Part shown: positions 1 to 22,241 of the stretch, piece after piece
Numbering within the stretch: position 1 is the first letter of the stretch
Layout of the letters: every line of letters begins with the position of its first letter
Source: Naegleria gruberi
Taxonomy: Eukaryota
NCBI GenBank assembly: GCA_000004985.1
Contig: GG738893.1
Direction: 5' to 3' (one strand)
DNA length: 64,000 nt
Notes under the pieces: generated by a model
What the model saw: the letters and a program-made list of their open reading frames with translations, nothing else
The model's database searches: none
What the model was told of the DNA's origin: nothing
Program-made: the position numbers and the translations under genes

Positions 1-189
1 TCCTTTTGGTGATCCAAGAGAAAGTTACTCATTCAGAGAATCATCTGATTAACCTTGTATAGTAAAATTTGTATTATATTCACTGTTATGGAGTTTTCAT
101 GCTGTTAAGAAATTGAAAAAAAATTGATAAGTCACAACTAGTTAATCAGCAGTAGATGTTTAGACGCAGTCATCAGAACACCAAAATAT

Positions 190-2622
190 TTATTCAAAGA
201 CAACATCTTTGGAGATGAGCTCAAACATTGGATCAACACATCTAAGGGTAACAGATTGGTTGGTGAGTAAAGAAACTGCTGGATAAAGAACGCCTGTGAT
301 ATTTCTAAAGCATTCACCAATGCATTTACCATTCAGATACCAAGAGAGGGTTGCACCAATATTATTCTTTGGATCGACAGCATCTTCAAAAGCTTTCAAG
401 TAGTACTTGACACGAGCCTTGACAATATCTCCCTCATTGAATGGAACGTTATTCCACTGTACGACAGGGTCACATGTGAAGGCTTGCTTATGTTTGAGAT
501 GAGTATTGGAATAAAAGTGTAAATTATCACCATTTCCGCCTGCATATCCAAAACCTCCATGTCTATCATATCCTACAAGATTGGTTGGTGTGGATTCCTT
601 GTAAGGGAAGGTTTCGGTTTCCAATCCAATTACAATCCACCAACCATTAGCGTTAGTCTTGTCGAATTTTTCAATCTTAATTTCCACTTCTAAAATTGCA
701 ACATCATCAGTGATAATATCCACATCTCCATTTTCAAGATCCAATGGTGAAATGAGAGGAAGTGTCATGTATCCATTCTTTCTCTTTTCAATTTCTGTTG
801 GAATTCTGATTGGAAGGTTAGTTCTCACAGTTTGCCAATGATATGTAATATTATCCTCTCTGTAGACAGTGGCATTGTTATTCTTGAACTTGATATTGTT
901 ACCTCTTTCACATGTATCCCAACACAATTTCAAGGCCCAATTAATAAAGAATCTATAATAGGTCTTCCATGACTTGTAATAACATGGTGGTTTTTCACAA
1001 ACAGTCATGAATCGTTTTTTAATCTCGTTAAGAGGAGTCTGAGAAAAGAATCTTGGACACTTGTCTAATGATTTAGAATTAGTAACATTTTGATATTTTC
1101 TCTTGACATAGTAGCTGTATACGTTCATACAAATCTCTTTCCAAAGCATTTCATTCTTTGCGAATTCTCTTTCAAATTCTTTACAAACCAATCCAATACC
1201 CAAAGCTAATTCCTTGTGAGTTAGGAATGAGAAAATTTGATAGTACAATTCTGGAATTAGTCTGATAACTTGTTTCTTTGTTCTTGGAGGAGTGCTAGTG
1301 TAGTGAGATGGGGAAGCAAAATGTATTGGATTACCTGCAAATGGTAATGAATCAACCATAGTAGTAACTTGATAAGAATGTGGTCTATGTACAGAAACAA
1401 TTTGGGAGCGAGGTGTTCTAATGATTGGAGAAGAAGTGTTGGAAAATTTGTTATTGTTACTCTTTTTGGTTGGAGTGAGAATAGTTTCAGTATTATTGCC
1501 AACTGGTTGTACAGATTCATTGGCCAATTCAATATTTGATCTCTCCAAAGATGCTAATGATGAAGCAACTGGTTGTTGTGGAGGACCAACGAGAATTTCT
1601 TCTGCATTCTTTTGAACTTTCTGATTGAGAATTGTTCTAGATGGAATTGCAGTGGCAGGAGGGGTATAGACTTGGTAGGCTCGTTGTTGAGAAGAATCAA
1701 TATTACTCAAAATAACTCTCTCAATGCTAATAGGTGGTCTGAATGGTTCGTTCGGTGGAACGAAGCAAAATGTATCATTATTGACAATTTGATCAATGCC
1801 ATCTACTTCTGTTCCTCTTAATGAAATTAATTTTGGCAAAATGTCAGAATTATCACTTCTTCCAATATCATTGAAAGGAGTGTATCTAAACTTGGAGCAA
1901 ACCATCATTATTAAATCTTCAAAAGAAGTACCAGTTGGATCGAAGGAAACAATCTTTCCATGTTGCAAACTACCATTAGGAAAGATGTGAATCCTCATCA
2001 TTGGTCTCGAGTACAAGGAAGGATAGTGGTTTTGTTCTATACTGGCATGTTCCATGAAACCATCTCTCTTTGCTGCATAAATTGGTTGTCCTGTGGTCAT
2101 ATTTGCAGCAACAGTGTGAGAGGATGACATGAATGGATGTTGCACATATTGATAGTGTTGATGATCATGATGAGATCTGTGATGTTGTTGAAGAAATTCA
2201 AAATCATCCTCATTTTGTTCATACATATCATATTGATCGGAGCATGATGGTTCTGCTAATTGTTGTTGTGATGAATAATTATTAAAGGAAAAGTTTTCAT
2301 ACAAATGTTGTGAAGATGAGTCGGAATATGTATGATCATCTTCCACAGAATTATTACTACTATTGTATCTGACAACGTTATCGAGTGAGGATTTTTTAAT
2401 CATATTGTTATTATTATTAATAGTTTCTTGAATGTCGGTATTGGAGTTGCTATTCGAATTACAACTCATACTTGATAGAGGCGGAGAGGATGAAAGGTTA
2501 GAATAGGAATTCACTTCTCCGAAATATGTATTAGAAATGGATTGAAATTGTTGTTGCTGTTGTCTGGTTAGATGATGAAGGGAGGAGAAATAGTGATTGT
2601 TAGCAGCAGCAGAATGAGACAT
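190..2622 (-). CDS. DCX-like / F-box / SPRY (B30.2) domain protein with a long N/Q/S-rich N-terminus; the C-terminal half resembles F-box/SPRY protein FBXO45
   Basis: Single 810-aa ORF. A doublecortin-type ubiquitin-like segment (RIHIFPNGSLQHGKIVSF...GTEVDGIDQIVNNDTFCFVP) is followed by an F-box (IRLIPELYYQIFSFLTHKELALGIGLVCKEF...LWKEIC). A C-terminal SPRY domain follows (GYDRHGGFGYAGGNGDNLHFYSNTHLK...WYLNGKCIGECF). The N-terminal third is low-complexity (QQQQQ, NSNSNSN, NNNNN). Confidence 0.6.
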   Translation of the reverse strand: MSHSAAANNHYFSSLHHLTRQQQQQFQSISNTYFGEVNSYSNLSSSPPLSSMSCNSNSNSNTDIQETINNNNNMIKKSSLDNVVRYNSSNNSVEDDHTYSDSSSQHLYENFSFNNYSSQQQLAEPSCSDQYDMYEQNEDDFEFLQQHHRSHHDHQHYQYVQHPFMSSSHTVAANMTTGQPIYAAKRDGFMEHASIEQNHYPSLYSRPMMRIHIFPNGSLQHGKIVSFDPTGTSFEDLIMMVCSKFRYTPFNDIGRSDNSDILPKLISLRGTEVDGIDQIVNNDTFCFVPPNEPFRPPISIERVILSNIDSSQQRAYQVYTPPATAIPSRTILNQKVQKNAEEILVGPPQQPVASSLASLERSNIELANESVQPVGNNTETILTPTKKSNNNKFSNTSSPIIRTPRSQIVSVHRPHSYQVTTMVDSLPFAGNPIHFASPSHYTSTPPRTKKQVIRLIPELYYQIFSFLTHKELALGIGLVCKEFEREFAKNEMLWKEICMNVYSYYVKRKYQNVTNSKSLDKCPRFFSQTPLNEIKKRFMTVCEKPPCYYKSWKTYYRFFINWALKLCWDTCERGNNIKFKNNNATVYREDNITYHWQTVRTNLPIRIPTEIEKRKNGYMTLPLISPLDLENGDVDIITDDVAILEVEIKIEKFDKTNANGWWIVIGLETETFPYKESTPTNLVGYDRHGGFGYAGGNGDNLHFYSNTHLKHKQAFTCDPVVQWNNVPFNEGDIVKARVKYYLKAFEDAVDPKNNIGATLSWYLNGKCIGECFRNITGVLYPAVSLLTNQSVTLRCVDPMFELISKDVVFE

Positions 2623-3223
2623 ATTTAAAAATCAAACGTGATTACCTTTCTTCTTTTAATAAAAAGTAGAGAAGGAATGTATAATATAAATATATAAATA
2701 ATACTATCTAGATAGAAAGGAGGAGAACAACATCAATATATATTTACAACAAATAACGTGTGCTGTTCCGTATAGTCTCTATGAGTATACAACAACAACA
2801 ACAACAAACAACAAAATAACACTCCTAATATCGCGATAGATACGATTCAACAATGTGTATGTTGAGGTGTAGAGTATTAGTAAATGTACAAGGGATTGTG
2901 TGGTTTTATTTTTTTGCTGCTTGGAACAAAATACATGGAAAAGGCGAAACGGTCTTTGCAAATTCATTCCTTATTGGATCTTGAGACAGACAAATTTGTG
3001 GAGTGAGCATTTTACGTAAAGCTTTACTGTCGAATACATTTGAAGACATTTAACGTTGTTGCTTGTAAGATTATAATGAATGAACGGTTGAGTATTATTC
3101 TAAATGTGTTGAAATTGTTACCTTAATAAAAAATTCAAATGATCTATCATGTTTGAGAATTGAAAAACAAGAGAAAGAAGAATCATGACCTATTACAATG
3201 TAGAAACACAATGTTCTCTATCT

Positions 3224-4339
3224 TTATTTTCTTGGGAATGCAAACATGTATTGAGGAGGAACAGCGACTGGGTAATCCAAATCTTGAGCAGCTCTAATTG
3301 GCCAGTAAGGATCATTCAAATCTTGTCTTCCAATTAATACTAAATCTGCCTTTCCATCCTTCACTAAATCATTAGCAAATTTAGCTTCCACTATTTTACC
3401 AACTGCACCAGTGGCCAATCCATCAACTGATTTCTTGACGCCCTCAGAGAATGGAACTTGATAACCTTGCACAATTCCAATTGGTGAAATTTTGGCTTTG
3501 GCATTATTACCACCAGATGAACAGTCCAACAAGTCAACTCCAGAATCACGTAAAACCTTTGCTAGCTCTGTAGTGTCTTTCATGGTCCAGCCCTCTTCAC
3601 CAACGTATTCATCAGCTGAAACTCTGACAAATAATGGCATTTCAGTTGGAATATTCTCTCTAATTCTTTGAACAATTTCAATCAAGAATCTAATACGATT
3701 TTCGAATGATCCACCATAAGCATCAGTTCTTTGATTTGAAGTTGGTGAAAGGAATGAGGAAATTAAATATCCGTGAGCTCCATGAATTTCAATAACATCA
3801 AATCCTGCCTTAACAGCTCTCTTAGCAGCATCCACAAATTGTTGAATCACTTCTTGAATTTGTTCAATGGACAATTCTGCAGGAACTTTGTGATTATCAT
3901 CAAATGCAATTGGAGATGGACCAACAACGTCCCATCCTCCTTCTTCATTTGTCAATGCTTTTCTTCCTAGAGCTTCCCACAATCTTCCAGTTGATGCCTT
4001 TCTACCAGCATGACCTATTTGTATTCCGATATGTCCACCCTGTTCGTGTGTAAATTGACAAATTTTAGACAACATGTCAACATGTTCATCTTTGTAAATT
4101 CCTAAACATCCTGGTGAAATTCTACCAATATCCGAAACACCAGTGGCTTCTACAATAAATAAACCAGCTCCACCTACAATTCTACTGCCAATATGTTGAA
4201 CATGCCAGAAATTAGCAAATCCATCAACCGATGAGTACTGACACATTGGGGAGACTACAATACGATTCTTTAAAGTCAATCCTCTAATTTTGAATGGTTG
4301 AAAGAGTGGAGGAACAGATGAGATATCTTGTGCTGACAT
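3224..4339 (-). CDS. NADH:flavin oxidoreductase, Old Yellow Enzyme family (YqjM/NamA-like class), intronless
   Basis: Uninterrupted 371-aa ORF. Hallmark motifs are present: FKIRGLTLKNRIVVSPMCQYSS near the N-terminus (compare Bacillus YqjM ...KNRIVMSPMCMYSS) and the TIM-barrel FMN/substrate signature IHGAHGYLISSFLSPTSNQRTDAYGGSFENRIRF. No intron, and length is typical of the family. Confidence 0.85.
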   Translation of the reverse strand: MSAQDISSVPPLFQPFKIRGLTLKNRIVVSPMCQYSSVDGFANFWHVQHIGSRIVGGAGLFIVEATGVSDIGRISPGCLGIYKDEHVDMLSKICQFTHEQGGHIGIQIGHAGRKASTGRLWEALGRKALTNEEGGWDVVGPSPIAFDDNHKVPAELSIEQIQEVIQQFVDAAKRAVKAGFDVIEIHGAHGYLISSFLSPTSNQRTDAYGGSFENRIRFLIEIVQRIRENIPTEMPLFVRVSADEYVGEEGWTMKDTTELAKVLRDSGVDLLDCSSGGNNAKAKISPIGIVQGYQVPFSEGVKKSVDGLATGAVGKIVEAKFANDLVKDGKADLVLIGRQDLNDPYWPIRAAQDLDYPVAVPPQYMFAFPRK

Positions 4340-5031
4340 TTTTTTAATGTTTGTTGAATGAATTGAGTGCGACAGAGATTATTGTTGAAAACTATTTATT
4401 TCATAGAGAGTTAATGTAAATGCGTCCTTTCTTGTTGTGAAGTTCCAAACTATTAGCAGAGGAAGCATAAATCATCTGATGAGGTTGCACAATTATTATC
4501 TTACGACTTTGTGCGTTTCAACAAAGTTTCCGAGACTTTCCGACTAGGTTGAAGATAACAAACTTCCGATACTAAATTATTTATACAAACAATTGCAATT
4601 TTACTCAATCATCATGTTGAATATCATGCAAAGATCACACCCCAATCAAAACCTCATTATTCCCTCATCAATTCCATCAACAAAACATTCAATCTTAATA
4701 CATATTGCAACAAATATTAAATAAATTGAAAAAAATGAAAAACCACAAACACCCATTTATTTTTTGTTGGTAAAATTTGCAGAGCATGAAGGATTTGTTA
4801 GTAGATAGACATGTGTTCAGACCACAATCCCGAAATCTCTAACATACCGTAATGGGCAAGTTTCTGGCTTCTGGTGTGGTCTGATATAGTAAGCCGTCTT
4901 CAGATTAACGTGATGCTGTCAAGATTTGCATTGCAGGGTCCGTTCTGGTTTCGTTACATCCAACCTTTTGTTTTTTGGATTTAAAATAATTAAAGATGGA
5001 TTTTAATTATTATTTAATTATTTAAATAAAA

Positions 5032-5748
5032 ATGATTCAACAAGATTTAATTGCTTCGGAACAAGAAAATAACCAAGACAAGATTGAACACGAAGCACCA
5101 TCTAATAATTCGGTCACAAATTTTGGATTGGAATGTCTGGGAAGGGATTATTACATTTCGGAAAAGTATTGCAAAATCAATGAAGCAAACAATAATTCGG
5201 AGAAGAAGATTATCGATTGGAAATCCATTCCTAAATTCGAGAAGAAACCCAAACTCGACTACTTTTACATTCTAAAGGAAATGGAAGATTTTGTAGAGGA
5301 ATTAGATGAAAAGTGTTCGTTAGAATTCAGCTGCAAATTGGAACAATTTTCAACTCACATCAACATGATTCAAAAAGGACTTGAACGAATCATTCGAACA
5401 ATGAATGATTTCTTCTCTTTGCATTCCAATTATAAGAGGGGAGATTTGGAAAAGACTTTTAATAATTTAATTCTCATTCTCACTTCACTCACTGACCTCA
5501 CCAAGGACTATATGAGTGAGAGAATGAAGAGTGATCTGATTGTTTCAAAATATGGTGAGATGGCTTCTAGAAACACTGTAGATTCTGAACAATTACAAGA
5601 ATCCACTCACTTTCAATTAATTTCCAACATTTTACAAGAACAAGTATTATCTCTTCAATCGAAAATTATGCAATATGGTGAGATTAAAAAGACTCAATTT
5701 GAAGTCAATGTTAAGCAATTGCAACGTGTGGACAAGTTGAGATTGTAA
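5032..5748 (+). CDS. hypothetical helical protein (no recognisable domain)
   Basis: 238-aa ORF with an ATG start, coding-like composition, and flanking A/T-rich spacer. No family recognised. Confidence 0.3.
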   Translation: MIQQDLIASEQENNQDKIEHEAPSNNSVTNFGLECLGRDYYISEKYCKINEANNNSEKKIIDWKSIPKFEKKPKLDYFYILKEMEDFVEELDEKCSLEFSCKLEQFSTHINMIQKGLERIIRTMNDFFSLHSNYKRGDLEKTFNNLILILTSLTDLTKDYMSERMKSDLIVSKYGEMASRNTVDSEQLQESTHFQLISNILQEQVLSLQSKIMQYGEIKKTQFEVNVKQLQRVDKLRL

Positions 5749-5834
5749 ATTATTTCTACTGGAACAAATCAAAATCGGAATGTGATGATTGTAATTTTAA
5801 ATCATTTAATTATATTTAAATCAATTAAAAAAAT

Positions 5835-7930
5835 ATGAAGAGAATCATTCCATCATTTAAGAAGGGATTGGAGAAATCTTTTCAATGTGAGCAGTATCGA
5901 TCATTCCGATTGCAAAATTGTAAATTAAAACCAATAACAACGATAAATTCATTGATGAGGAATGGAAATTACAATTCAATGATGAAGGCTAAATATTTCG
6001 GAAGAAGAAATTTTGGAACTGATTCTTCTTCAAGAAGGTTATTGTCTTGGAATAGTTTTAAATTGTGGAGTGCTTGGATATTGCTAGGATTTGGTGTTTT
6101 TGTTGGTGTTGATTCGATTTATAGTACATACAAGGTTCAATTTGATAGATTGATGAGGTTTTTTACTTCGGAAGAGATTTTACCTGATGAGAGTTGGGAT
6201 TCTTCATGTTTTGTTGATAAAAAGACTTTGGAAATGCTCAAATACTTGTTTAACAAGTATTCACATGGAAAGGATGTCATGTCTATTGAAGAGTTGAGAG
6301 AATTCTTCAGTCAAGAGCAACAGGATGAATTGCCCAATAATATTAATCGAGATTCCATTGATTTTCAACAATTTATATCAATTTTACTGACCACTTCATT
6401 CATGAAACTGGAAGAGTTTGAAGATGACTTACCGTTGTCAGATTATTTAATTTCCTCCTCTCACAATACCTATCTGGAGGGAAATCAGCTTACTAGTGAA
6501 AGTTCTAAAAAGGCCTATATTGATTGCCTTAAAGCTAATTGTAGATGTATCGAAAGTAAGTAATATTCATCAATGGAAATAATTTAACTGATCATGTGCG
6601 AATAGTTGATTGTTGGGATGGTCCTAATGGAGAACCAATAGTCTATCATGGTTGGACTCTCACCTCAAAGATTACACTCAAGGAAGCACTTGAAGGAATC
6701 AAACAATATTCATTCCACACAACTGACTATCCTCTCATCATCTCATTGGAAATTCATTGTAATTTTGATCAACAGAAAAAAATTGCACAACATTTGAAAG
6801 ATGCATTTGGTGAGAAGATTATTGCTCCATCAGAATTGAGTAATACTGAGCAACTTCCAAAACTTTCTGAATGTAGAGGAAAGGTCTTACTTCAGGGAGA
6901 GTTGGCAAAGTTGGAAAACAAATTGAGACAAGTTGAGGTGGATATTGTTTCTGATATATTTTTCGAAAAGAATATTTCACACAATGAATTTGATCCTCCA
7001 GAACTTGTATGGGCCAGAAATGTCATTCCAAACATTAATATAGATGAAAAGTTTGTTGTGGAAAAGATGGACGAATCAATGAAGACTCTCGACACAACAT
7101 TTCCAACCATGCAACCTGATAAGGACAAAATAGGACAGTGGACTAAGGAGCTGTATGACCTCTTATTTTTTAAATCTGTGGTCGATGTACATCATGAATA
7201 TCCAGAGGAAACTTCTCAAATTCACAAAATGATTAATCTCTCAGAAGGAATGGGACTGACTCATATTATCAAGAAGGGTTCCCATTTTTTCAAACACAAT
7301 GAAACTCTAATGACTAGAATTTATCCAAAAGCTACAAGAGTATTCTCCACTAACTTTAGTCCAGTAATGTATTGGGCTGCAGGTTGTCAGATTGTATCTC
7401 TCAATTATCAATTTTGTGATCAATTTTTGAGAATTAATAATGCTCTCTTCTCATCCAATCCAAGTGGATACGTACCAAAAGCCAAGCTAGACGAAACAAC
7501 ACCATTCAAAAATGTTAAAATTGAAGTAATTGATTTCATTCCAGCCAAGTCAACTCTTCAAAAGGTCAACCAACTTTCCATTGGAGTTATTGAAACAGGT
7601 TCTTTATCTGTTTCGAATAAGAAAATATACTCGAACCTTGTCAAGGTATTGAAAGATTCATTGAATGGGGAGACAGCACTCACTTCCAAGCAAACTATTA
7701 ATGCACCACTGGATGATAAGAAATCTATCATTTCATTTGGACTTTTTAAAAAGAAGAATCCTCTTATTAGACCATTCTCTACATTGTTTAGATTGGGTAA
7801 TTTTGAATGTGTTGGATATTCATCTCTACTCACTCATCAACTTTTGCCAGGATTCAGATTCCTTCCTATGAGAAATTATGAAGGTCAAATCGTTGGTGGA
7901 TTTCTTGTACACATTACAAAGCAATCATGA
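5835..7930 (+). CDS. phosphoinositide-specific phospholipase C (X and Y catalytic boxes). Two exons: 5835..6555 and 6606..7930
   Basis: The PLC X-box is split by a 50-bp GTAAGT...AATAG intron (6556..6605): ...[34 protein letters not shown]|[37 protein letters not shown]...[11 protein letters not shown]. The splice restores the canonical C(R)CIE(L)DCWDG motif. The Y-box reads [34 protein letters not shown]. An EF-hand-like region precedes the X-box. The N-terminus has a hydrophobic segment ([16 protein letters not shown]). Confidence 0.8.
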
Positions 7931-8195
7931 ATTTCATAGATTTGAGAGTATTTACTAACCGATCTACAAGTTTTAACCATCATAATGGAAGAGATAACAC
8001 ACAATTGGGAATGTTATTTCATAATTATTTTATGAAAATTATTCGAAAGTAAAGGAAATGAATTCATTTTCCCTTATCATCCATTTAAGGATTTTGGGAG
8101 TCGTCATGAGGATTCGAAAATGAAAATCACCATGATTTGGCTGTCATACGAAAGGATGGATTCTATCCACTTGTCACTAATCATTTTTAAAAAAA

Positions 8196-10775
8196 ATGTC
8201 GACACTATCAACCGAGTCTTTTTACACAACTCTTGAACAAAAATTCTCTACAGTCTTTTTCTTTCTGAATGGGGTTGTTGCTAACTCATCCAATCCATTC
8301 CGAATTTTGATTAATGATGAGGTAAATAATTGCTCTCTGAAAATTTATTTTACCATTTATCCGAAAGTGTGTTTTAAAGCTTGAATCCAACTGTAATAGT
8401 GTTGTCTATGCAACACAAGTCGAAGAACCAAGAGTTGGTGGCCATCACTTTATTAGAGTGAAAGCTGATTGGTAAGTTTCTCAAAGTTTAGTTTTCTTTA
8501 AACCAAAGAAGTCCATTGTTGAGATCAGGATCAGGTTTATCGAGCCAATACGAAAGATATAATTTGAGTATTAATGGATTCTTTATTTTGATTGATTGTA
8601 CTGAAGAAATTGGAGGTTCAGATACTGGAATTCGTATCATTCAACAAAAACATGACAATTTTGGACCAAATTATAAGAATTACAAGTTTGGAAATAAGGA
8701 GACTGAGAATGCAATTTTAAAAGGTTTATCATCTACCAGAAATTTAATCAAATCCAATTTACCACCTAAACAACTTGAAGAACAATTGAAAAAACTTGAA
8801 CAATTGTTTAGAAAGGACATTTTGACAAGAGAAGAATTTGAATCTAAATGGAAAATGGTTTACAATCCAGCAAATAGTGGATCAGAAATGACCTATGCCA
8901 CCACTTCTAATAATCAACAAACTAATACACAGAGTAGTGGCAATATGGATGGCCTCACACAAGATCAATTAGATTTACTTTCCAAGTTGAGAGGGTAAGT
9001 ATTGTGAAATTCACTTTCTAAATTGTAACATTTGTAATAGATTGATTGGAAGAGGCATTATCACACAGGAAGAGTACAATGCCAAGCTCAATAAGCTGAA
9101 AGAAGAAAATCAAAAATCCTCCCCTCCAAAACAACCATCTCTTACTCCAGAACAGAAGCAAATGATTGAAAAATTGGAAAGCCTTTTATCAAAGGGAATT
9201 CTCACACAGGAAGAATTCGAAATGAAAAAGAAACAAATTGTTGGAAATAATTCTCAAATCAGCAGCTCTACATCTGGTCAGAAATCTCCAACTGCAGTAG
9301 AAACAATTTCATTTGAAAAGTATGCACAACAATATGAAGATTTAAAGTGCATGATGAATGAATCTCAAAAACACCAAATGAGAACTCTTGAAAGATTTGT
9401 CAACGATGGAATAATTACACAAGACGAATATGAAATGAAAAAGAAAAAAGTTTTGGGAAATCTTTACACTCCAACAAATTGGATTTATCAAAAGCAACTT
9501 TCTGAAAGAGAACAAACCAGTAGCTCTCCATCTTCTCCTTCTACTCCTTCCTCTACAGAATCTCTATCCGAAAGTCAAAAAGAAAGAATTGAAAAATTGA
9601 AAATATCAAAGGAGAAGGGAATTTTAACCAATGAAATGTTCGAATCGAGAATGCAACAAATTTTGGATGAAAACAAGCCAGTTCAAGACACTGAAGATTA
9701 TTCACATCTCACCTCTGATCAACAAAATTATATTGCCAAACTGAAATATTTCAAAAAGATGGGAATTCTTACACCATCCGAATTTGACATTCAAATGGAA
9801 AAAATCATTTCAGACCCTGATAGTGTCAAGACCGGTGCTCTAGTTTCTTCACCTCAAACACCTACAAGTAGTTCATCAAATTCCTCTCCAAAAACCCCAA
9901 CAGACTCCAAGCCATCCACTCCAACCATTATTTCTAACAAGTCAAGTAAGCCATCTACTCCTACTCCTGTCTTTACTTCAGAAGAAGTGGAAACTCCAGT
10001 CACTCCAACTGATAGCTCTCAAAAGAATCAACAAACCAATACAGTTCCAAAATTGGAAGAAAAGAAGCCAACCACACCAGTACCTATCGTTGAAACCAAG
10101 AAAAAACCATCTTCAGAAAAGATTGTTAAGGAAAGTCCAAAAGAAACAACTCCTAAACAATCATCAACACCAATCAGTAGTGGTGCAGAGCAAGATGAAG
10201 AAATTCAAGATCAACTGGAAAGACTCAGATCACTTGTCGATATGGGAATCATCTCAGAGGAAGATTACAAACAAAAGGAAGAAAAGCTCTTGAAGGGAAC
10301 ACCAACCCCTGCATCTCCAGCTGCTACACCAGAAGAATCCAAACCTGTAGTCAATCAACAAGCAACCAATAATCAAGTCAAACAATTGGAAAAGCTCTAC
10401 AATTCTGGAATTATTTCAAAGGAAGATTTTGAGCAAAAAGTCAACAAAATTCTTGGAAAACCTCAAAATGAGACAACCACCACAAAGGTTGAAAGTCCAT
10501 CCTCTCCAAGAAACACCTCAAATGTCAAAGATCAAAATGTTAAAGTAGAATTGGCCAAATTGAAGAAACTTTTGGAGAATGGAATCATTGCACAAGAACA
10601 ATTCGAAATGAAACAATCTAAATTATTGGGCACTTCTCCATCAAGTACCACCACTGAAACTGAATTATCATCAGAACAAGAGGAGCAAATTGCCAAATTG
10701 AAATCCTTCCTTGATGAGGGTCTCATAGATCAGGACGATTATCAAGAAGAGTTGAATAAAATCTTGAATAAATAA
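8196..10775 (+). CDS. SHOCT-repeat protein with about 10 tandem SHOCT-like motifs separated by S/T/P-rich linkers. Exons (5' ones tentative): 8196..8321, 8380..8471, 8512..8994, 9041..10775
   Basis: Ten repeats match the SHOCT (PF09851-type) consensus '(L/I)xKLxxLxxxG(I/L)ITxEE(F/Y)ExKKxK(I/L)LG'. Examples: LEQLFRKDILTREEFESKWKMV, IEKLESLLSKGILTQEEFEMKKKQIVG, LERFVNDGIITQDEYEMKKKKVLG, LERLRSLVDMGIISEEDYKQKEEKLL, LAKLKKLLENGIIAQEQFEMKQSKLLG, IAKLKSFLDEGLIDQDDYQEELNKIL. The 46-bp intron 8995..9040 (GTAAGT...TAATAG) joins ...LSKLRG to LIGRGIITQEEY in frame. The upstream exons (8196.., 8380..) and the 40-bp intron 8472..8511 are inferred only from frame continuity. They encode a non-repeat N-terminal region (FFFLNGVVANSS...GGHHFIRVKAD...NGFFILIDCTEE). 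Confidence 0.6.
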
Positions 10776-10895
10776 TAACATTATTGAATAAAGAAATATA
10801 ATATATGATTTATTCCTATTTAAATATCAAAGATTATTGAAAACCTATTAATGTTTGGAACTATGCATTGAAATCGAACATATGAACTCAGTTCC

Positions 10896-12181
10896 TTGAA
10901 CTTTTTGTTCAAACCAAAAAAAATGGCTCCACATGCAACTTTATTCTCATCACTTCCCTATGAAATATTCCAACATATTTTATCGTTTGGAGCTGATAGC
11001 GAATTGAAAAATCCATCAAGTAGAAATTCAGATATCCGAATGGTTGCCAAATTTCAATCAATTAATAAGAAAATTTCGAATATGAAGGAAATGCAAGATT
11101 ATTTCAATGCCTTTTGGTGGAAAGTATTCGAAAAGAATTTTGGAATTGGTCAATTATTTGGAAATGATTTGGAGAAACTTCGATTACGAATGATTAAACG
11201 AGACGAAATGAAGAGGAAAATTTTATTAGCAAGTTATATCAAATTTAAACTTTACAAACGACCAAAATATGATCCTAATGCACAACAACAACAAGAGGAA
11301 GTTAAAATAATAGTGCTTGGGGAAGGAGGAGTGGGTGAGTAATAATAATTCTATTATTCGATTCTAATAGAATTTTATTATGGACCTATTTATTTCACAT
11401 TTACCATAATTATGAAAATAAGGAAAATCTGCAATAACCATTTTCTTTATTCAGCATATTTTTATTACTGAATACGATCCGACAATTGAGGATACATACA
11501 GAAAGTATTTTAGGGTTGATGAAGAGCCAGCCATGGTAGAAATTCTCGATACTGCAGGTGAGTTTTTGTAATGTTTGGCAATAATTATGATTAACTAATT
11601 TTGATGATAACTATTAGGACCTGAGGAGTTTTCTAGTAAGTAAATTTAATTAGAAACTCGACTAATATTATGTTAGCATGGAGAGGTAAGAGATTTTATT
11701 TGGGATTGTAATATAATTCAATTAATAATACCTCTTAATAGATCAATATATGAGAGTTGGAGATGCATTTGTAATTGTATGTTCTTCAAGTGATGAAAAC
11801 TCTGTATCAGATATGCGTAGACACGTAGAGAACATGTTACGTTGCAAAGATGTTGAAGTTAATGATAGGCCTGTGGTGTTTGTTTTAAACAAGATGGATT
11901 TATTGGTTAGTGCCAATAGAAATGAAACAATTGATCGTTTTAGACAAGAAGTTAATTCAATTGTTTCAGATAATTCATTATTGAACTATTCCATTATTGA
12001 ATGTAGCGCCAAAAATGGAGAAAACATCGATGCCATATTTGAGGAAACTGTTAGAAAGCAAAGACTTGGTGGAATTGATAATCTTACTTTATTGAAAGGA
12101 TGCATTGAACAAGACATCTCATACATTGAGGAATGTAAAAAGAGGGTACAAGTCAAAAAGAAGAAATGCTCAATAATGTAA
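10896..12181 (+). CDS. Ras-family small GTPase with CAAX box (CSIM) and a ~145-aa N-terminal extension carrying an F-box-like motif. Five exons: 10896..11334, 11423..11557, 11618..11635, 11677..11685 (9-nt micro-exon, tentative), 11742..12181
   Basis: Splicing reconstitutes G1 to G5 in order: [11 protein letters not shown]|[46 protein letters not shown]|GPEEFS|TWR|[13 protein letters not shown]...FVLNKMDL...[18 protein letters not shown]...KKKKCSIM*. Compare H-Ras GAGGVGKSALTIQ...[13 protein letters not shown]...[24 protein letters not shown]...NKCDL...ETSAK...CVLS. Introns are 88, 60, 41 and 56 bp with GTGAGT/GTAAGT donors. The N-terminal exon has [12 protein letters not shown] (F-box-like). 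Confidence 0.7.
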
Positions 12182-12246
12182 AGAATTAATAATAAATAAT
12201 TTTTAATTTGGACCTAGTTCATAAACCTTTATTTAATATTTTAGAT

Positions 12247-12365
12247 GGCTACGGCCATATCACGATGAATGCACCTCATCCCGTCCGATTTGAGAAGTTA
12301 AGCATCGTCGAGCCACATCAGTACTGAGGTTGGAGACAACTTGGGAACCTGTGGCGCTGTAGTCT
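12247..12365 (+). rRNA. 5S ribosomal RNA, solitary copy followed by a TTTT Pol III terminator
   Basis: GGCTACGGCCATATCACGATGAATGCACCTCATCCCGTCCGATTTGAGAAGTTAAGCATCGTCGAGCCACATCAGTACTGAGGTTGGAGACAACTTGGGAACCTGTGGCGCTGTAGTC TTTT. The 5' GGCUACGGC pairs with 3' GCUGUAGUC (helix I). The conserved AAGUUAAGC loop C region and the GUACU.GG...GGGAA segment are present. Confidence 0.85.
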
Positions 12366-12372
12366 TTTGCTC

Positions 12373-13117
12373 TTATTTGGTTTGCTTACAAGGAATATGA
12401 TTCCTAAGATGCGTACTTAATCTACTATTTATTACTTTTACATTAGAGAAACAATCCCGATCATTCTTATTAAAAGTGAAATAGATGGATTGTAATTGAA
12501 TGAACATCTGATCCACAAACACTGAAAATCCAAGTTCGAATGCCTTCCTCACAGCATCGTTCAAACTAACTTTCTTCAAGATAGTGAGAAATCTGTAGTA
12601 TTGAGTCCAACAATTATTCCAAGAGTATCTCTAATAATTGAAAACCAATCTCCTACTGCATGAAATGTCATCTCATAATTCATTGAAAAACATGGAAGAA
12701 TATACATGCTCTTATCATTTTTTTTGTATCTTTGGATAAGATCTTGTTTCGAATAGAACTTTCAGATCCACCTGGTATCCAAATTTCCTGTTGCCATTCA
12801 ATCGTTTGGAATTGTAAATTTTTTGTAAAAGGATTCAAATCCAGAACGCAAACCATGTGGCTTGTTTCCACACCGAACAAATTCACAAAAGTAACACGTT
12901 CCAACTCCAGCCTCTCCCACCACACAATAAGTGGAAATTTAAATTCAGTAAAGACAGATCGATAGAAATTTAACAATTTCAATTCTGAACTATTCAAAAT
13001 ATGTGAAATTACATTGAGATCTCCCTTCTCAGGATGATCCTGATTTCCTAATTTTAAGGATAATTTTAACAAGTATAATCGGATGAAATATTTTACATTC
13101 CCATATTGGAACATCAT
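12373..13117 (-). CDS. hypothetical protein, probably two exons
   Basis: ORFs 12680..13117 and 12373..12579 are on the same strand. They can be joined by a 62-nt intron if a GTTTTT donor is accepted (…CIFFH|RYSWNNCWTQ…). No family recognised (WWERLELERV, WIPGGSES). Splice junction is unverified. Confidence 0.3.
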
Positions 13118-13646
13118 GATTTTGATGACAATTAAATGAAATTTTCAACTCAGAACAACAACCAGTTGTAAATTCGGAAATTCTATCAAAAGTAACAATA
13201 CACAATTTTTTAATTAAATTGTGAAGGCTAAAACATCAATCGGTTGCAAAAATGGAATAATTTCAGCCCAACAATCTTGATGCATTTTTTTTGTAAAGTT
13301 TAATTATTGAATTCCAATAATAAATTGGATGTAATTTGATAGACAACTTCTTCCACTACTAGCACCTCCTTGAACCAGATGGTGAAGATGATCTTCCACC
13401 ACCACTACTTCCAGCTCCACCTCTAGAACCTCCTCCAGAAGATGATCCACCAGCTCCTCTTGAACCTCCACCACCACGTCCTAAAGTGTTGATGTTATTG
13501 TTATCCTCAATTAATTCTAATCTTTAGCAATTAAGACAGTGTCATTATTCAAAATGAGACTAATTGACAAGTTCAATGTCTTTTGAGAATAAATATAAAA
13601 AAATATTATATAATAAATTAAATTTTATCCGCAATAATTATCACAA

Positions 13647-15317
13647 TTATTTCTTTTCCTTTCCACATAAATTTTTGTGATTTGACCAATCCTGCAATTG
13701 GTGTTCTCTGGAACAGTAATATACAGATCTGCATTTAGAGCATTGTTTTAAATTTTGTGTACTATCACAAATAGCACATGCTTTAACTGGTGCCTTGGAA
13801 AGCATTTTTGTTTCTTCAAAGGTTCCAAGTTTTGATGTGCCTGTTTGGAAATTATAAGAATAGAAATTAGAATCATCCATCTTGGAAACATTACTACGAA
13901 GGGCATTTTGCACACGACGTTTTGCATCTACTTATGAAAAACTGGTTGGATTAAATGATCCTTTTCTTTCAAGGTAATTAGCTGCCTTATTCAAGTGAGA
14001 CATTATTTCAGAATGGCTATCCTTATCTTTGGCAAATGAGGGATTGTTCTTGAAGAGAGTTCCGTAGTAATATATTTGAATGGCATCAGCATATCGATGA
14101 ATAGATCCACAATCTTCTGCTGGGCAACAGTTTTCACCATCTTCAACTGTAATAGTTTGATCATTTGAATCCTCAATATTTTCAACTGTGATTTTGTGTC
14201 TGAATGAATCTCCCAAATCATACATGTAAAACATTTCATCTCCAGTCTAATTACATTGTAGTAAAAAGTAAAAAACACATACCTTTTCAAGTAAATGGAA
14301 TAGTTCAACCTTTGTATCATCTGCAGTGTAAATGTTGTGACTAAACTCGTGCATTTTGTCTACAGCTTGACTGTAAATTGGACCAAATACTAGGTCTGGT
14401 TGTGGCATTCTTTGATTTTTAGAGTCTTTCTTTTCGAATGGGATTTTTCTAAAATAGTAGGCATGATAGTTTCGGCACCATCCAAGAACAGGTGAAATAA
14501 CACGATCTTGCAAACTTTGTAGAGTAATAGAACCAGGTAATTTGACTCTTCTCCAAATGTGTGGTCTAAAGTTCAAAACTTGAATTCTCAACTGGTACAT
14601 TTTGCTTCTGAGATGAGTATTTGGTGAGGCAGTGACTTTCTCCACGAGTTCGTCTGCCTTCCTTTCCAGAACGTCCATTCCACCACTGAACATTAAATTT
14701 TGTCTTGCAAACATGAGCTGTTGAACCTGTTCAATACTCAATTCACTCTGATCTTCTCCTTCCACATAATCATCAACTGAACAGAAAATAGATTCCAAAC
14801 ATTTAGCAATTTGGTTGTGAATTTCACCTTTTTGTGCTTTGGAAATTTCTCCAATATCCAATGCAGATTTTAGTGTCTGCACAACAATTTCTCTAATATT
14901 CTTGATTAATTCTCTTTCCTGCTTATCATCAAACACCTTGTCGTGATCACCCAATTTTGCAAAACTAACAAAAGCTTCACCATACAAAACATATCCAGGA
15001 GCAAAACTTGGTTGATTAATAACACATTCTTGTCCACTATTCAGGGCTTTCAATATAGCCAACCTCTTTTCTTCCTTCTCCGAGAGTTGATCAGCCCTTA
15101 TCAATGAAGCCTTGCATCTAGCTTCAAGCAGGAAGGCAAGGTCATCCTTGCTGATGGCAGAATACTTTTCTACATTGCTGTTGGAAAATACCTCATCTAA
15201 CAAAGCTAGCAGGGAATCAACTTGTTCTGGTTTATCCAGTAGAGAAAGTACCTCCTTCTTCTTTTCCAATACATCGGATGAACTTTGTGGTTTGATCGTA
15301 ACTTTGTATTTGGACAT
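13647..15317 (-). CDS. PRiA4b-ORF3-like domain protein with a C-terminal MYND zinc finger. Exons: 14283..15317, then about 13943..14246 (or read through to 13935), and a MYND exon ending 13647
   Basis: The PRiA4_ORF3 signature reads HIWRRVKLPGSITLQSLQDRVISPVLGWCRNYHAYYF ... (36-bp GTATGT..TTAG intron 14247..14282) ... FYMYDLGDSFRHKITVENIE. Compare family consensus IWRRixVPxxxTLxxLHxVIQxAMGWxxxHLHxF ... YxYDFGDxWxHxI. The downstream MYND finger is CAICDSTQNLKQCSKCRSVYYCSREHQLQDWSNHKNLC. The two parts share a frame but are separated by a single TAA (13932..13934); see findings. Confidence 0.65.
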
Positions 15318-15972
15318 TTTGTTGATTGATAAAAATGATTGAATAATAAACCAAAAAGTTTAGCCTAGTGATGAATCATCAAGCAAAGGTCCTAAAGAAG
15401 CTTGTGTTGAAATTGATGAAACAGATATGTCCTGTTAGAAATCCTCCACTTGAAATTTACCAGAGAGCGAATCAATGCATGTTGTTTTTTCGTTTTTTTT
15501 TAGAAATTAAATAACGGTTACTATTGGCGTTTGACCTAATTTTCACTTTACAATTAGTTAATACTGAAGAGATTTATAGACAAGGAAGGTAATCCAATGA
15601 TTGGATTTGCACCTAACAGTATTAATGTAGATGGATGTAATAATTTTACAAAATGTGGATATTGTTGAATGTGAATTGAAAGATGGGACGTTAATTATGG
15701 AGTTGTCTTACCACAAAATCAACCTGAGCTATTTCCTGCCTTTGATGTCAGTGATGCAAATTGTATCTTTGAACTAACAACAAAATGGATTGTATAGTTG
15801 TTTATGAAATATTTACATGATAATTTTTCATGTATACGAAAAACAAACTGTGTATTATTTTGATGAAAATATTCCAATAATGAATATGACATTGTGAGTT
15901 TACTGTTGGAAGTCTGATTTGTTATTGTGATGAGTTGTCATTTACCAATCAAAAAAAAAACAAGAACAACAA

Positions 15973-17367
15973 ATGACCAAGAAGAAAACAGGAATCATGA
16001 CCAACAACGCACCACCATCATCATCACAAATCAAACAACAAGTGCAAGACACAAAAAACCAAACAAGCCTCCTCAAAAAGCAACTCGACTCTATCGTACA
16101 ACAATATGAACAACAATTGGCAAATTTGGAAAAGTTAGAAACTGCCTTGAATGAGAAGGATGAACAAGTCAAAAGTAGAGAAATTCAAGTCGCTCAAAGG
16201 GAACAATCTGTAAAAGATANNNNNNNNNNNNNNNNNNNNNNNNNNNNNNNNNNNNNNNNNNNNNNNNNNNNNNNNNNNNNNNNNNNNNNNNNNNNNNNNN
16301 NNNNNNNNNNNNNNNNNNNNNNNNNNNNNNNNNNNNNNNNNNNNNNNNNNNNNNNNNNNNNNNNNNNNNNNNNNNNNNNNNNNNNNNNNNNNNNNNNNNN
16401 NNNNNNNNNNNNNNNNNNNNNNNNNNNNNNNNNNNNNNNNNNNNNNNNNNNNNNNNNNNNNNNNNNNNNNNNNNNNNNNNNNNNNNNNNNNNNNNNNNNN
16501 NNNNNNNNNNNNNNNNNNNNNNNNNNNNNNNNNNNNNNNNNNNNNNNNNNNNNNNNNNNNNNNNNNNNNNNNNNNNNNNNNNNNNNNNNNNNNNNNNNNN
16601 NNNNNNNNNNNNNNNNNNNNNNNNNNNNNNNNNNNNNNNNNNNNNNNNNNNNNNNNNNNNNNNNNNNNNNNNNNNNNNNNNNNNNNNNNNNNNNNNNNNN
16701 NNNNNNNNNNNNNNNNNNNNNNNNNNNNNNNNNNNNNNNNNNNNNNNNNNNNNNNNNNNNNNNNNNNNNNNNNNNNNNNNNNNNNNNNNNNNNNNNNNNN
16801 NNNNNNNNNNNNNNNNNNNNNNNNNNNNNNNNNNNNNNNNNNNNNNNNNNNNNNNNNNNNNNNNNNNNNNNNNNNNNNNNNNNNNNNNNNNNNNNNNNNN
16901 NNNNNNNNNNNNNNNNNNNNNNNNNNNNNNNNNNNNNNNNNNNNNNNNNNNNNNNNNNNNNNNNNNNNNNNNNNNNNNNNNNNNNNNNNNNNNNNNNNNN
17001 NNNNNNNNNNNNNNNNNNNNNNNNNNNNNNNNNNNNNNNNNNNNNNNNNNNNNNNNNNNNNNNNNNNNNNNNNNNNNNNNNNNNNNNNNNNNNNNNNNNN
17101 NNNNNNNNNNNNNNNNNNNNNNNNNNNNNNNNNNNNNNNNNNNNNACTAAGAAAACAAACACTTCTGATTTGAATTCAAATGTTTTAGGAACAAAATCAA
17201 ATCATTTCAAAGTTAAACTCATATCTAATTGTAATAGTTTAATGATTGGATTTGCACCTAAAAGTATTAATGTGAACGAAACAAATAATAATACAAAATG
17301 TGGATATTATTTATATACTACTACTGGAACCATTTATTCTCAGAATGGAGAATCAAACAAAAGCTAA
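15973..17367 (+). CDS. coiled-coil protein with a C-terminal SPRY-like segment, copy 1 of a local family; interrupted by a 926-bp N-gap
   Basis: The N-terminus is a Q-rich coiled coil (MTKKKTGIMTNNAPPSSSQIKQQVQDTKNQTSLLKKQLDSIVQQYEQQLANLEKLETALNEKDEQVKSREIQ). The C-terminus after the gap reads HFKVKLISNCNSLMIGFAPKSINVNETNNNTKCGYYLYTTTGTIYSQNGE, which is SPRY-like. The middle is unknown (N-run). Confidence 0.5.
   Translation: MTKKKTGIMTNNAPPSSSQIKQQVQDTKNQTSLLKKQLDSIVQQYEQQLANLEKLETALNEKDEQVKSREIQVAQREQSVKDXXXXXXXXXXXXXXXXXXXXXXXXXXXXXXXXXXXXXXXXXXXXXXXXXXXXXXXXXXXXXXXXXXXXXXXXXXXXXXXXXXXXXXXXXXXXXXXXXXXXXXXXXXXXXXXXXXXXXXXXXXXXXXXXXXXXXXXXXXXXXXXXXXXXXXXXXXXXXXXXXXXXXXXXXXXXXXXXXXXXXXXXXXXXXXXXXXXXXXXXXXXXXXXXXXXXXXXXXXXXXXXXXXXXXXXXXXXXXXXXXXXXXXXXXXXXXXXXXXXXXXXXXXXXXXXXXXXXXXXXXXXXXXXXXXXXXXXXXXXXXXXXXXXXXTKKTNTSDLNSNVLGTKSNHFKVKLISNCNSLMIGFAPKSINVNETNNNTKCGYYLYTTTGTIYSQNGESNKS
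16220..17145. other. assembly gap (926 N)
   Basis: Run of n characters. Confidence 1.
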
Positions 17368-19419: not shown

Positions 19420-19469
19420 NNNNNNNNNNNNNNNNNNNNNNNNNNNNNNNNNNNNNNNNNNNNNNNNNN
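19420..19469. other. assembly gap (50 N)
   Basis: Run of n characters. Confidence 1.
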
Positions 19470-20457: not shown

Positions 20458-20723
20458 AAATGACCAAGAAGAAAACAGGAATCATGACCAACAACGCACC
20501 ACCATCATCATCACAAATCAAACAACAAGTGCAAGAAACAAAAAACCAAACAAGCCTCCTCAAAAAGCAACTCGACTCTATCGTACAACAATATGAACAA
20601 CAATTGGCAAATTTGGAAAAGTTAGAAACAGCCTGAATGAGAAGGATGAACAAGTCAAAAGTAGAGAAATTCAAGTCGCTCAAAGGGAACAATCTGTAAA
20701 AGATGAAGAAAATCAAATGAGAA
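20458..20723 (+). pseudogene. second copy of the 5' end of the coiled-coil/SPRY-like family gene (near-identical to 15973..16219), with a 1-bp deletion and truncated by an N-gap
   Basis: 20440..20723 aligns to 15955..16219 with a few substitutions. The copy reads ...EKLETA* (ttagaaacagcctgaatg) where copy 1 reads ...EKLETALNEK (ttagaaactgccttgaatg), a frameshift. It runs directly into gap 20724..20961. This could be an assembly or sequencing artefact rather than a true pseudogene. Confidence 0.35.
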
Positions 20724-20961
20724 NNNNNNNNNNNNNNNNNNNNNNNNNNNNNNNNNNNNNNNNNNNNNNNNNNNNNNNNNNNNNNNNNNNNNNNNNNNNN
20801 NNNNNNNNNNNNNNNNNNNNNNNNNNNNNNNNNNNNNNNNNNNNNNNNNNNNNNNNNNNNNNNNNNNNNNNNNNNNNNNNNNNNNNNNNNNNNNNNNNNN
20901 NNNNNNNNNNNNNNNNNNNNNNNNNNNNNNNNNNNNNNNNNNNNNNNNNNNNNNNNNNNNN
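20724..20961. other. assembly gap (238 N)
   Basis: Run of n characters. Confidence 1.
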
Positions 20962-21014
20962 CAAATCTACTCCCTTCTACTTGTACCTACTGTACAAATG
21001 AATATTGTACCCAG

Positions 21015-22241
21015 ATGAGCTTTGTTCCATCTGATTATTGGATCATTCCAGTTAGCGTACTTGTCATTATATATTATGTAATTTTATTTGCTACTAAATC
21101 ATTTCAGTTACCAGCCATTAAGAGAAGATTGTTAACTCCTTACACACCAATTGTATGTGTCTACTTTGAGACTCAGGAAATGTACGCACTCGATAGTTAT
21201 TGTGCCAAAGTAAGATTAACGATTTTAGGAACTGTTATGAATTGGGTAATTTTGATTTGCATATTCACTGTTATAAGATTCTACTATCTCAGAAATCTGT
21301 ATCATGCTATGGCACAATCGAATACATCTGTAAAGATCGACAGTATTAGAAGGAGAAAAGTACTTTCTAGTGTATGGTTTGGTATTGTTTTTACAGGACT
21401 GATTTCTCTCATTGTTTCATTATTTGTTTCATTACCATACTTGGCTCAAATATTTATTGTGTTTCACAATGACGATTTTGATGAGTTTGCTTTGCATAAC
21501 ATGTTAATAGCCATTTATATCTTGATTGGTTGCATTATTGGAGTTGTGACAGTTCTTGTTGATATGAGTTTAAATTGGAAAAAGATCAAACAAAGAGGAA
21601 TTAGACATTTTTTGATCTTTGACGATCCATTCATGTTCAGAGTTGACATGGCACTATTCATAGTAATTATTATATTGATTATTATTGCTTCAATTCCTAA
21701 AAATCAAGTTCATGTAGATTTATTTTTCAGATTCTTAATCTATTTTACATTTACTTTTGTTGCAGGAGGTGTAGTAATTATCAAATCAATGATTGAAAAG
21801 TGGATGGTGAAAGGGAAAGACTATGAGTCAAATTTCATTCAATACCTTAAAAATCCAGAATTTCAAGAATTACTCAAAAATTACTGCCTTAAAGAAATGT
21901 CCTCTGAAAACTTTGCAATTTATATGGACCTTATGAAGTTAGATAAGGAGGGAAAGAATTCAACAATGGACCTTGAAACTTTACAAACTCTAGAGAAGGA
22001 TTATTTTCTTGCTAATTCAATGTATGAAATCAATATTTCACATGCTGCAAAAATGAATTTCTATAAATTGTTGAATAGTGCCAAACAGAATGAACCTCCA
22101 ACTGTTGGTGAATTGATTGAAGCTCTACTCACTGATGTTGTTAGAAATTTGTATGATACATTCTCAAGACTCGAAAGAACTAAAGAGTTCAAAGTTTGGC
22201 TTGAAATTTATGATATTCAAATAAAAAATCTATTACTCTAA
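21015..22241 (+). CDS. seven-transmembrane protein with a C-terminal RGS domain (7TM-RGS hybrid)
   Basis: 408-aa ORF with about 7 hydrophobic helices (IIPVSVLVIIYYVILFA, LTILGTVMNWVILICIFTVI, VWFGIVFTGLISLIVSLFVSL, LIAIYILIGCIIGVVTVLV, ALFIVIIILIIIASIP, FLIYFTFTFVAGGVVII). A C-terminal RGS signature follows: NPEFQELLKNYCLKEMSSENFAIYMDLMKL...FLANSMYEINIS. Confidence 0.7.
   Translation: MSFVPSDYWIIPVSVLVIIYYVILFATKSFQLPAIKRRLLTPYTPIVCVYFETQEMYALDSYCAKVRLTILGTVMNWVILICIFTVIRFYYLRNLYHAMAQSNTSVKIDSIRRRKVLSSVWFGIVFTGLISLIVSLFVSLPYLAQIFIVFHNDDFDEFALHNMLIAIYILIGCIIGVVTVLVDMSLNWKKIKQRGIRHFLIFDDPFMFRVDMALFIVIIILIIIASIPKNQVHVDLFFRFLIYFTFTFVAGGVVIIKSMIEKWMVKGKDYESNFIQYLKNPEFQELLKNYCLKEMSSENFAIYMDLMKLDKEGKNSTMDLETLQTLEKDYFLANSMYEINISHAAKMNFYKLLNSAKQNEPPTVGELIEALLTDVVRNLYDTFSRLERTKEFKVWLEIYDIQIKNLLL

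Follow-up and report, generated by a model that had tools for sequence, protein, structure and literature searches.

Between two eukaryotic genes of Naegleria gruberi lies an uninterrupted open reading frame for an Old Yellow Enzyme (OYE) of bacterial type, which raises the question of whether the gene was acquired horizontally and, if so, at what depth in the history of its host. The first-pass annotation of the 64,000-nucleotide stretch of DNA analyzed here (the window) had proposed it as a horizontal transfer candidate, describing an intronless YqjM-class enzyme among intron-rich genes. It had also set the protein against a metazoan enzyme family, a contrast that is misplaced for this host, a heterolobosean amoeboflagellate. 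The features of the locus on which the analysis draws are listed below by their position in the window.

3224..4339, minus strand: OYE coding sequence, 371 amino acids plus stop, single exon (open reading frame list, ATG to stop)
4229..4252, minus strand: SPMCQYSS motif, which holds Cys33 and Tyr35 (translation)
3767..3784, minus strand: HGAHGY motif, which holds His186, His189 and Tyr191 (translation)
3695..3730, minus strand: RTDAYGGSFENR motif, the conserved YGGS loop of OYEs (translation; invariant columns of alignment A1)
3242..3253, minus strand: QYMF, C-terminal, which holds Phe366 (translation, aligned to YqjM)
190..2622, minus strand: F-box-like/SPRY protein gene, 810 amino acids, single exon, identical to XP_002673116.1 (open reading frame, Pfam, exact protein match)
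5032..7930, plus strand: phosphoinositide phospholipase C (PLC) gene, at least three open reading frame segments, divergent from the OYE gene (open reading frames, Pfam)
4340..5031, no strand: intergenic spacer of 692 bp separating the start codons of the divergent OYE and PLC genes (coordinates)

The reading frame runs uninterrupted through 371 codons from ATG to stop, as first described, and lies on the minus strand, which that description had omitted; an in-frame stop 13 codons upstream of the ATG bounds the stop-to-stop frame. The motifs quoted for it (SPMCQYSS, HGAHGY and RTDAYGGSFENR) are all present in the translation, which is letter for letter that of XP_002673117.1 (EFC40373.1, NAEGRDRAFT_60833, UniProt D2VS66), a protein encoded on a 337,165-bp N. 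gruberi scaffold. The flanking genes are eukaryotic and the OYE gene is integrated between them, again as first described: the sequence from the F-box gene through the OYE gene to the PLC gene is gap-free and annotated on this 337-kb scaffold. The F-box-like and SPRY matches in 190..2622 both fall slightly below the Pfam gathering cut-offs, and the PI-PLC-X domain of the PLC gene is divided over two open reading frames by an intron. Runs of N occur in the window only at 16220-17145, 19420-19469 and 20724-20961, so that positions 1-16219 are continuous and the nearest run is more than 11 kb from the OYE gene. The spacer at 4340..5031 is presumably the site of both the OYE and the PLC promoters. 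No second OYE copy was found within the 64-kb window by tblastn; a second copy, XP_002668376.1, identical at 369 of 371 positions, lies on a scaffold of 7.9 kb, for which the simplest explanation is an allelic haplotig.

Enzyme class and active-site residues

The protein consists of one full-length Oxidored_FMN domain (Pfam PF00724, 6e-80), with residues 12-354 matching profile positions 2-339 of 342. Sequence matches in the PDB are led by the Thermus scotoductus OYE (7e-111), followed by YqjM (2e-89) and XenA (~1e-81), and class I enzymes (PETN reductase, OPRs) are matched at only ~1e-33. An AlphaFold model of the monomer, prepared with a 20-sequence alignment as input, has a mean pLDDT of 86.6 and a pTM of 0.90, and superimposes on CaOYE, TsER, YqjM, AfOYE1, BfOYE4 and AnOYE8 with TM-scores of 0.88-0.92. 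Against the NamA equivalog model (NCBIfam NF010047) the protein scores 374.3 bits, below the curated cut-off of 431, which makes it a relative of NamA and not an equivalog.

Active-site positions were assigned using YqjM numbering as the ruler, the YqjM sequence having been verified against PDB 1Z41 (338/338). Residues C26, Y28, A60, Q102, H164, H167, Y169 and R215 of YqjM correspond to C33, Y35, A65, Q107, H186, H189, Y191 and R239 of the window OYE, respectively, and all are conserved; YqjM Lys109 is likewise matched by an identical residue, Lys114 in HAGRK, which occupies an invariant column of alignment A1. Cys33 and Tyr35, as aligned, are the equivalents of YqjM Cys26 and Tyr28, the signature residues of class II, and are invariant in the bacterial homologues (286 of 286) and in all eukaryotic ones, apart from a Tyr-to-Phe replacement in P0016.

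The one departure from the class is found near the C terminus. [quoted passage not shown] At the aligned position the window OYE has Phe366, and thus lacks the arginine finger that is listed for class II together with His164/His167, Tyr169 and Lys109 (PMC3915301). Among the 262 bacterial sequences having a residue in this column, 253 have Arg; the core heterolobosean clade described below has Phe or Tyr, with Arg only in the Willaertia sequence P0007 and in two basal metagenome proteins, P0141 and P0146. Pfam, PDB matches and conserved residues all agree with the YqjM-class assignment of the first-pass annotation, and as judged from sequence and model the protein is a class II (YqjM / thermophilic-like) OYE, best named a class II variant without the arginine finger, because all class II criteria checked fit except the Arg336 equivalent. 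Loss of the finger could alter the oligomeric active site. A more far-reaching proposal, which is regarded as rather doubtful, is that the core clade constitutes a eukaryote-specific sub-class, with Phe or Tyr in place of the Arg finger, four to five paralogs per genome, remodelling of the shared active site, and new physiological substrates that might include electrophiles of bacterial prey. The Arg-to-Phe/Tyr change across the clade may be of interest to biocatalysis groups seeking ene-reductases.

The same pattern of likeness and difference emerges from comparison with individual OYEs. YqjM (NamA) of Bacillus subtilis (PDB 1Z41), the founding class II OYE, has the same fold and domain at ~46% identity, and differs in having the Arg336 finger where the window OYE has Phe366 and in being without a segment of ~17 residues after HAGRK (…WEALGRKALTNEEGGW…) that the window OYE and its closest bacterial relatives have. 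The best solved relatives are TsER (the Thermus scotoductus OYE / chromate reductase, 3HF3; 51-52% identity) and Chloroflexus aggregans CaOYE (7O0T; 48%), on which the window OYE model superimposes with TM-scores of 0.90-0.92 and an rmsd of ~1.6 Å; unlike the window OYE, these enzymes are bacterial and thermophilic, with the arginine finger kept in a QYQR motif and a shorter loop following HAGRK. The fungal class II OYEs AfOYE1 (8J59), BfOYE4 (7BLF), AnOYE8 (7QFX) and Penicillium steckii ER (8S4P), which are the sole other eukaryotic members of the class with structures and show the class to extend beyond prokaryotes (PMC3915301), have the same fold (TM-score 0.92), but they are longer (386-455 amino acids), bear N-terminal extensions and share only 42-46% identity with the window OYE. 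XenA of Pseudomonas putida is a class II relative that is more distant in sequence (~41% identity). Its C-terminal Trp358, not an Arg, reportedly reaches into the neighbouring active site, as Griese et al. are said to have described in 2006; the PDB holds an entry named 'XenA - W358A', and Trp358 is a possible analogue of Phe366.

By inference from its family, this probably functional nuclear N. gruberi gene would encode a cytosolic FMN-dependent, NAD(P)H-linked class II ene-reductase acting on activated alkenes. The bound FMN would be reduced by NAD(P)H, and a hydride would then pass from FMN N5 to the beta-carbon of the activated alkene (an enal, enone, quinone, maleimide or nitro compound), while His186 and His189 would hold the substrate carbonyl and Tyr191 would protonate the alpha-carbon; Cys33 and Tyr35 are predicted to tune the flavin and to help form the pocket. 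The role of the enzyme is probably the detoxification of reactive electrophiles or of products of oxidative stress. YqjM itself is induced under oxidative stress and by xenobiotics, according to the work cited in PMC5845897.

Introns, composition and the heterolobosean family

Intronlessness was central to the original proposal, which held that almost all of the remaining window genes contain at least one intron. This does not hold: four window genes modelled as single open reading frames, at 190-2622 (minus strand), 23437-25239 (plus), 37130-38959 (minus) and 57658-59466 (plus), are letter for letter annotated N. gruberi proteins of the same scaffold, and the first of them is the F-box/SPRY gene adjacent to the OYE gene. 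The window has several other long open reading frames that begin with ATG and have no partner segments, and ~10 genes are clear chains of several open reading frames (e.g., PLC and PARP, with their domains split). The mean for N. gruberi is 0.7 introns per gene, a figure given in PMC5862402 with citation of the genome paper, and a 1.1-kb gene without introns is therefore unremarkable. With intronless neighbours, this low mean and a family member that does have an intron (see below), intronlessness is no evidence of transfer here, and the case cautions against reading missing introns as a transfer signal in a genome with so few of them.

The composition of the gene, proposed earlier as a further check against its neighbours, likewise lends nothing to the idea of a foreign gene. 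The OYE open reading frame has a GC content of 0.38 and a GC3 of 0.22, within the GC3 range of 0.20-0.39 of the other long open reading frames in the window. Scored with a leave-one-out synonymous-codon model built from the 15 other window genes, it has a host codon score of 0.48 and ranks second of 16; 80 bacterial homologues have a median GC3 of 0.74 and a median host codon score of -0.95. Thus neither GC3 nor the codon model, each compared with the window genes, gives any foreign composition signal in the OYE open reading frame.

The gene is one of a family. N. gruberi encodes at least three other paralogs, NAEGRDRAFT_81529, NAEGRDRAFT_60504 and NAEGRDRAFT_74504 (85%, ~65% and 61% identity to the window OYE, respectively), and further members occur in N. 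lovaniensis (one, 68%), Willaertia magna (four, about 60-62%) and the transcriptome of Heterolobosea sp. BB2 (two, 58%); several metagenome proteins also fall among the heterolobosean OYEs. Typical eukaryotic genes (CYRI, IQGAP/filamin, RIO1, PPR, CLN5, PARP, SCAMP) are present on the contigs of a Willaertia copy, of the Naegleria-like metagenomic P0004, and of the basal P0141 and P0146. The N. lovaniensis member, orthologous to NAEGRDRAFT_60504 at 80% identity, is interrupted by a 167-nt phase-1 GT-AG intron (L001 10611-10777), located within the Ala codon that follows HG in the HGAHGY motif. Synteny argues neither for nor against transfer, the copies in N. lovaniensis, in Willaertia and in Naegleria-like metagenome sequence having unrelated neighbours.

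Phylogenetic analysis was performed by neighbour-joining (NJ) only. A tree of 127 taxa contains a heterolobosean clan of 21 sequences with 99% bootstrap support. With 311 taxa the Naegleria and Willaertia core is supported at 95%, a group that also includes BB2 at 65%, and one that includes P0141 and P0146 as well at 70%; with 406 taxa a eukaryotic clade of 25 sequences appears whichever of the three distance corrections tried is applied. Given this supported heterolobosean clade, any transfer would be older than the split between Naegleria and Willaertia and not specific to the locus at 3224..4339.

Relatives outside Heterolobosea were sought in three protein searches, with the window OYE, BB2 and P0146 as queries and the best 120 matches of each retained, in a database that includes EukProt. 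Among these best 120 matches per query, the named ones outside the heterolobosean clade are bacterial without exception, with no eukaryote database tag on any match there; named eukaryotes beyond Heterolobosea, whether fungi, euglenozoans, jakobids or others, are missing from them. Most of the matches are metagenome proteins lacking names, of which two (P0141 and P0146) lie on eukaryote-like contigs. Bacterial identities are 53-58% to the window OYE and reach 60-63% to BB2 and P0146. When prokaryotes were scanned with one genome for each species, at least 600 matches were obtained, the best of which are spread over Bacteroidota (Larkinella, Flavitalea, Chitinophagales, Pedobacter, Flavobacterium), Acidobacteriota, Pseudomonas, Cyanobacteria, Verrucomicrobia, Streptomyces and even haloarchaea. 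The first-pass annotation had named closest homologues in related eukaryotes with a vertical phylogeny as grounds for rejecting a transfer, and what was found is divided in this respect: the closest homologues are indeed from related eukaryotes in one clade, and beyond that clade they are bacterial.

Origin of the OYE family

The depth at which the eukaryotic clade joins the NJ trees depends on the distance correction. When the trees are rooted with YqjM, the clade lies near the base under the Kimura correction or with gamma=1, and deep inside the bacteria with gamma=0.6. The basal branches are only 0.007-0.036 long, and no donor group is supported. The YqjM branch joins beside the eukaryotic clade with just 20-23% support, and rooting by YqjM or by midpoint is unstable basally; neither a nested nor a basal position is therefore claimed for the clade, whose own stem is short (0.03-0.05 substitutions per site). 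Two sequences from metagenome-assembled genomes that are nominally sister to the clade (L062 and L063) were rejected as donors, having long branches and being only 44-56% identical to everything.

The OYE gene is neither a recent transfer nor a contaminant. A recent bacterial transfer specific to this locus of N. gruberi might be suggested by the uninterrupted reading frame and by the bacterial identity of the best matches beyond Heterolobosea, but is very improbable given that the gene is closest to paralogs and orthologs from Heterolobosea in a supported clade, that its codon usage and its GC3 are fully those of the host and rank with the most host-like of the window genes, that at least four other window genes also have no introns, and that even the best bacterial identity to the window OYE is only ~55-58%. 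Bacterial contamination or a chimeric assembly is scarcely credible at all: the scaffold is a draft with three N gaps in the window, but these are more than 11 kb off, outside the continuous sequence of 1-16219; GC content (0.38), GC3 (0.22) and codon usage are host-like; there is a near-identical second allele or scaffold; and homologues from N. lovaniensis, from Willaertia and from two further eukaryotic assemblies are surrounded by eukaryotic genes, and one of these homologues has a spliceosomal intron.

The best explanation, considered likely, is that the N. gruberi class II OYE gene belongs to an old heterolobosean family that was acquired anciently from a bacterium; the bacterial-leaning identities and the shortness of the clade's stem both favour such an ancient bacterium-to-heterolobosean transfer. 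Alternatively, an early eukaryote may have had a class II OYE that descended vertically and was lost from most lineages, with no bacterial transfer to Heterolobosea. This would accord with the commonness of class II OYEs in fungi, where they are widespread (127 genes in 60 species; PMC3915301) and structures are known, and with the position of the eukaryotic clade near the YqjM root in NJ trees under mild distance correction. It is nevertheless unlikely, as fungal identity is 42-46% versus 53-63% for many bacteria (a comparison of similarity scores only, the trees being without fungi), no other named eukaryote is among the best 120 matches of the three queries even with EukProt included, the heterolobosean stem is short, and stronger rate correction (gamma=0.6) nests the clade in bacteria. 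Several independent bacterial acquisitions in Heterolobosea, by which for example the Arg-bearing basal P0141 and P0146 would be separate from the Phe/Tyr core, are quite improbable. The best matches of P0146 are Cytophagales sequences (59-62%), slightly above Willaertia (58%), and BB2, P0141 and P0146 join the core at 65-70% only; against this, all 25 of the 25 sequences with a eukaryotic context fall in one clade under every distance correction tried, and the occurrence of Arg within the core in Willaertia P0007 alone fits a single Arg-bearing ancestor. Under the preferred reading of a single ancient acquisition, the OYE family would most likely have passed from a bacterium into an early heterolobosean. 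There it would then have duplicated and adapted its codon usage to the host; one lineage would have acquired an intron, and an aromatic residue would have taken the place of the Arg finger.

A precedent in Discoba is the OYE of Trypanosoma cruzi, TcOYE, a discoban enzyme also proposed to be bacterial in origin (PMC5845897). TcOYE differs in being a class I enzyme of a proteobacterial-like lineage rather than of the YqjM lineage, and since it belongs to this other major lineage, its acquisition would be an event independent of that of the Naegleria OYE.

Transfer had been reported for this gene before. An independent phylogenomic screen by Clarke et al. (2013; Genome Biol 14:R11, PMC4053784) listed ~400 bacterial-derived Naegleria genes, and XP_002673117 is among those given for Naegleria gruberi in its Additional file 2 (sheet 'LGT-derived genes'). 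There its nearest neighbour is Hydrogenobacter thermophilus (Aquificae), and that of the paralog XP_002678883 is Flavobacteriaceae bacterium 3519-10 (PMC4053784); the assignment of paralogs from one clade to Aquificae and to Flavobacteria indicates that single-gene donor calls are unreliable. No paper treating the N. gruberi OYE gene individually was found in the full texts searched. The candidacy of XP_002673117 for lateral transfer is thus already known, and the gene is publicly annotated. As to origin, what stands of the original proposal is that the nearest relatives beyond the host's own protist lineage are bacterial, which makes acquisition from a bacterium the most likely history; the event, however, appears ancient and family-wide. 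The significance of the locus is accordingly slight and mostly a matter of bookkeeping, the mildly new observations being the clade-wide change of the Arg finger to Phe or Tyr and the intron in the catalytic motif of the N. lovaniensis member.

Arginine-finger position and intron content of the OYE copies

In nearly all heterolobosean OYE copies the QY-x-R of class II is changed to QY-x-F or QY-x-Y; the changed motif, in which an aromatic residue replaces the arginine finger (C-terminal Arg336 of YqjM), is encoded at 3242-3253 (minus strand) in the window OYE, where that residue is Phe366, and is present also in homologous proteins P0005, P0008, P0009, P0126 and others. Among bacterial homologues Arg occupies the finger position in 97%, with Trp or Tyr in a few. 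Contigs L085 (GCA_006365135.1, VFQM010008585.1) and L083/L084 (JGI 3300062347), all eukaryote-like and with GC of 0.35-0.38, encode basal OYE-clade members in which the arginine finger is retained.

The OYE homologue of N. lovaniensis (contig L001, PYSW02000040.1) contains a phase-1 GT-AG intron of 167 nt (L001 10611-10777), which splits the codon for Ala in HGAHGY, the catalytic motif; the ORF behind the N. gruberi ortholog (protein P0122) appears to be uninterrupted, as does that behind metagenomic P0006. Genes with NHL and teneurin-EGF domains adjoin this homologue (L001 11516-14842), and a gene of similar type lies in the window:

47819-52102, plus strand: large receptor-like protein; NHL and EGF repeats of teneurin type, protein kinase domain at the C-terminus

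The presence of NHL/teneurin-EGF genes in both places probably reflects a large dispersed family and not synteny.

Paralogs and published transfer calls

The window protein, XP_002673117.1, and a second N. gruberi protein, XP_002668376.1, are only two conservative substitutions apart (V138I and V262I). The latter is encoded on a 7.9-kb scaffold that is probably an unmerged haplotig, its OYE having been annotated as a separate gene. In Additional file 2 of Clarke et al. (2013, PMC4053784), two paralogs from a single heterolobosean OYE clade are entered as LGT genes with different putative donors, Aquificae for one and Flavobacteria for the other, and three further copies (XP_002671524, XP_002670543 and XP_002668376) are not entered; these entries show that automated calls of LGT and donor are inconsistent.

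Scaffold gaps and other bacterial-type domains in the window

Three runs of N interrupt the window:

16220-17145: scaffold gap, 926 bases
19420-19469: scaffold gap, 50 bases
20724-20961: scaffold gap, 238 bases

These fall within or beside the ORFs at 15934-17367 and 20721-22241, and gene models of that region are unreliable. Bacterial-type domains were found in three further places:

8991-10775, plus strand: ORF of 594 aa with six SHOCT domains (Pfam, 1e-45)
14247-15317, minus strand: ORF with a PRiA4_ORF3 (plasmid pRiA4b ORF-3-like) domain (8.9e-11)
39196-40703, minus strand: gene in two ORFs, RlmN_N in the first part (1.7e-5)

SHOCT is a short domain characteristic of proteins from bacteria, archaea and phages, and the first ORF, which also has GvpG- and XkdX-like matches and a probable upstream exon (8492-8998, plus strand), may therefore be a further bacterial-type gene. 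The PRiA4_ORF3 domain is known chiefly from bacteria and plasmids; the single-ORF model of this gene has no exact match in the public annotation. RlmN is a bacterial-type radical-SAM rRNA methyltransferase, and the RlmN_N gene may be of organellar or bacterial origin.
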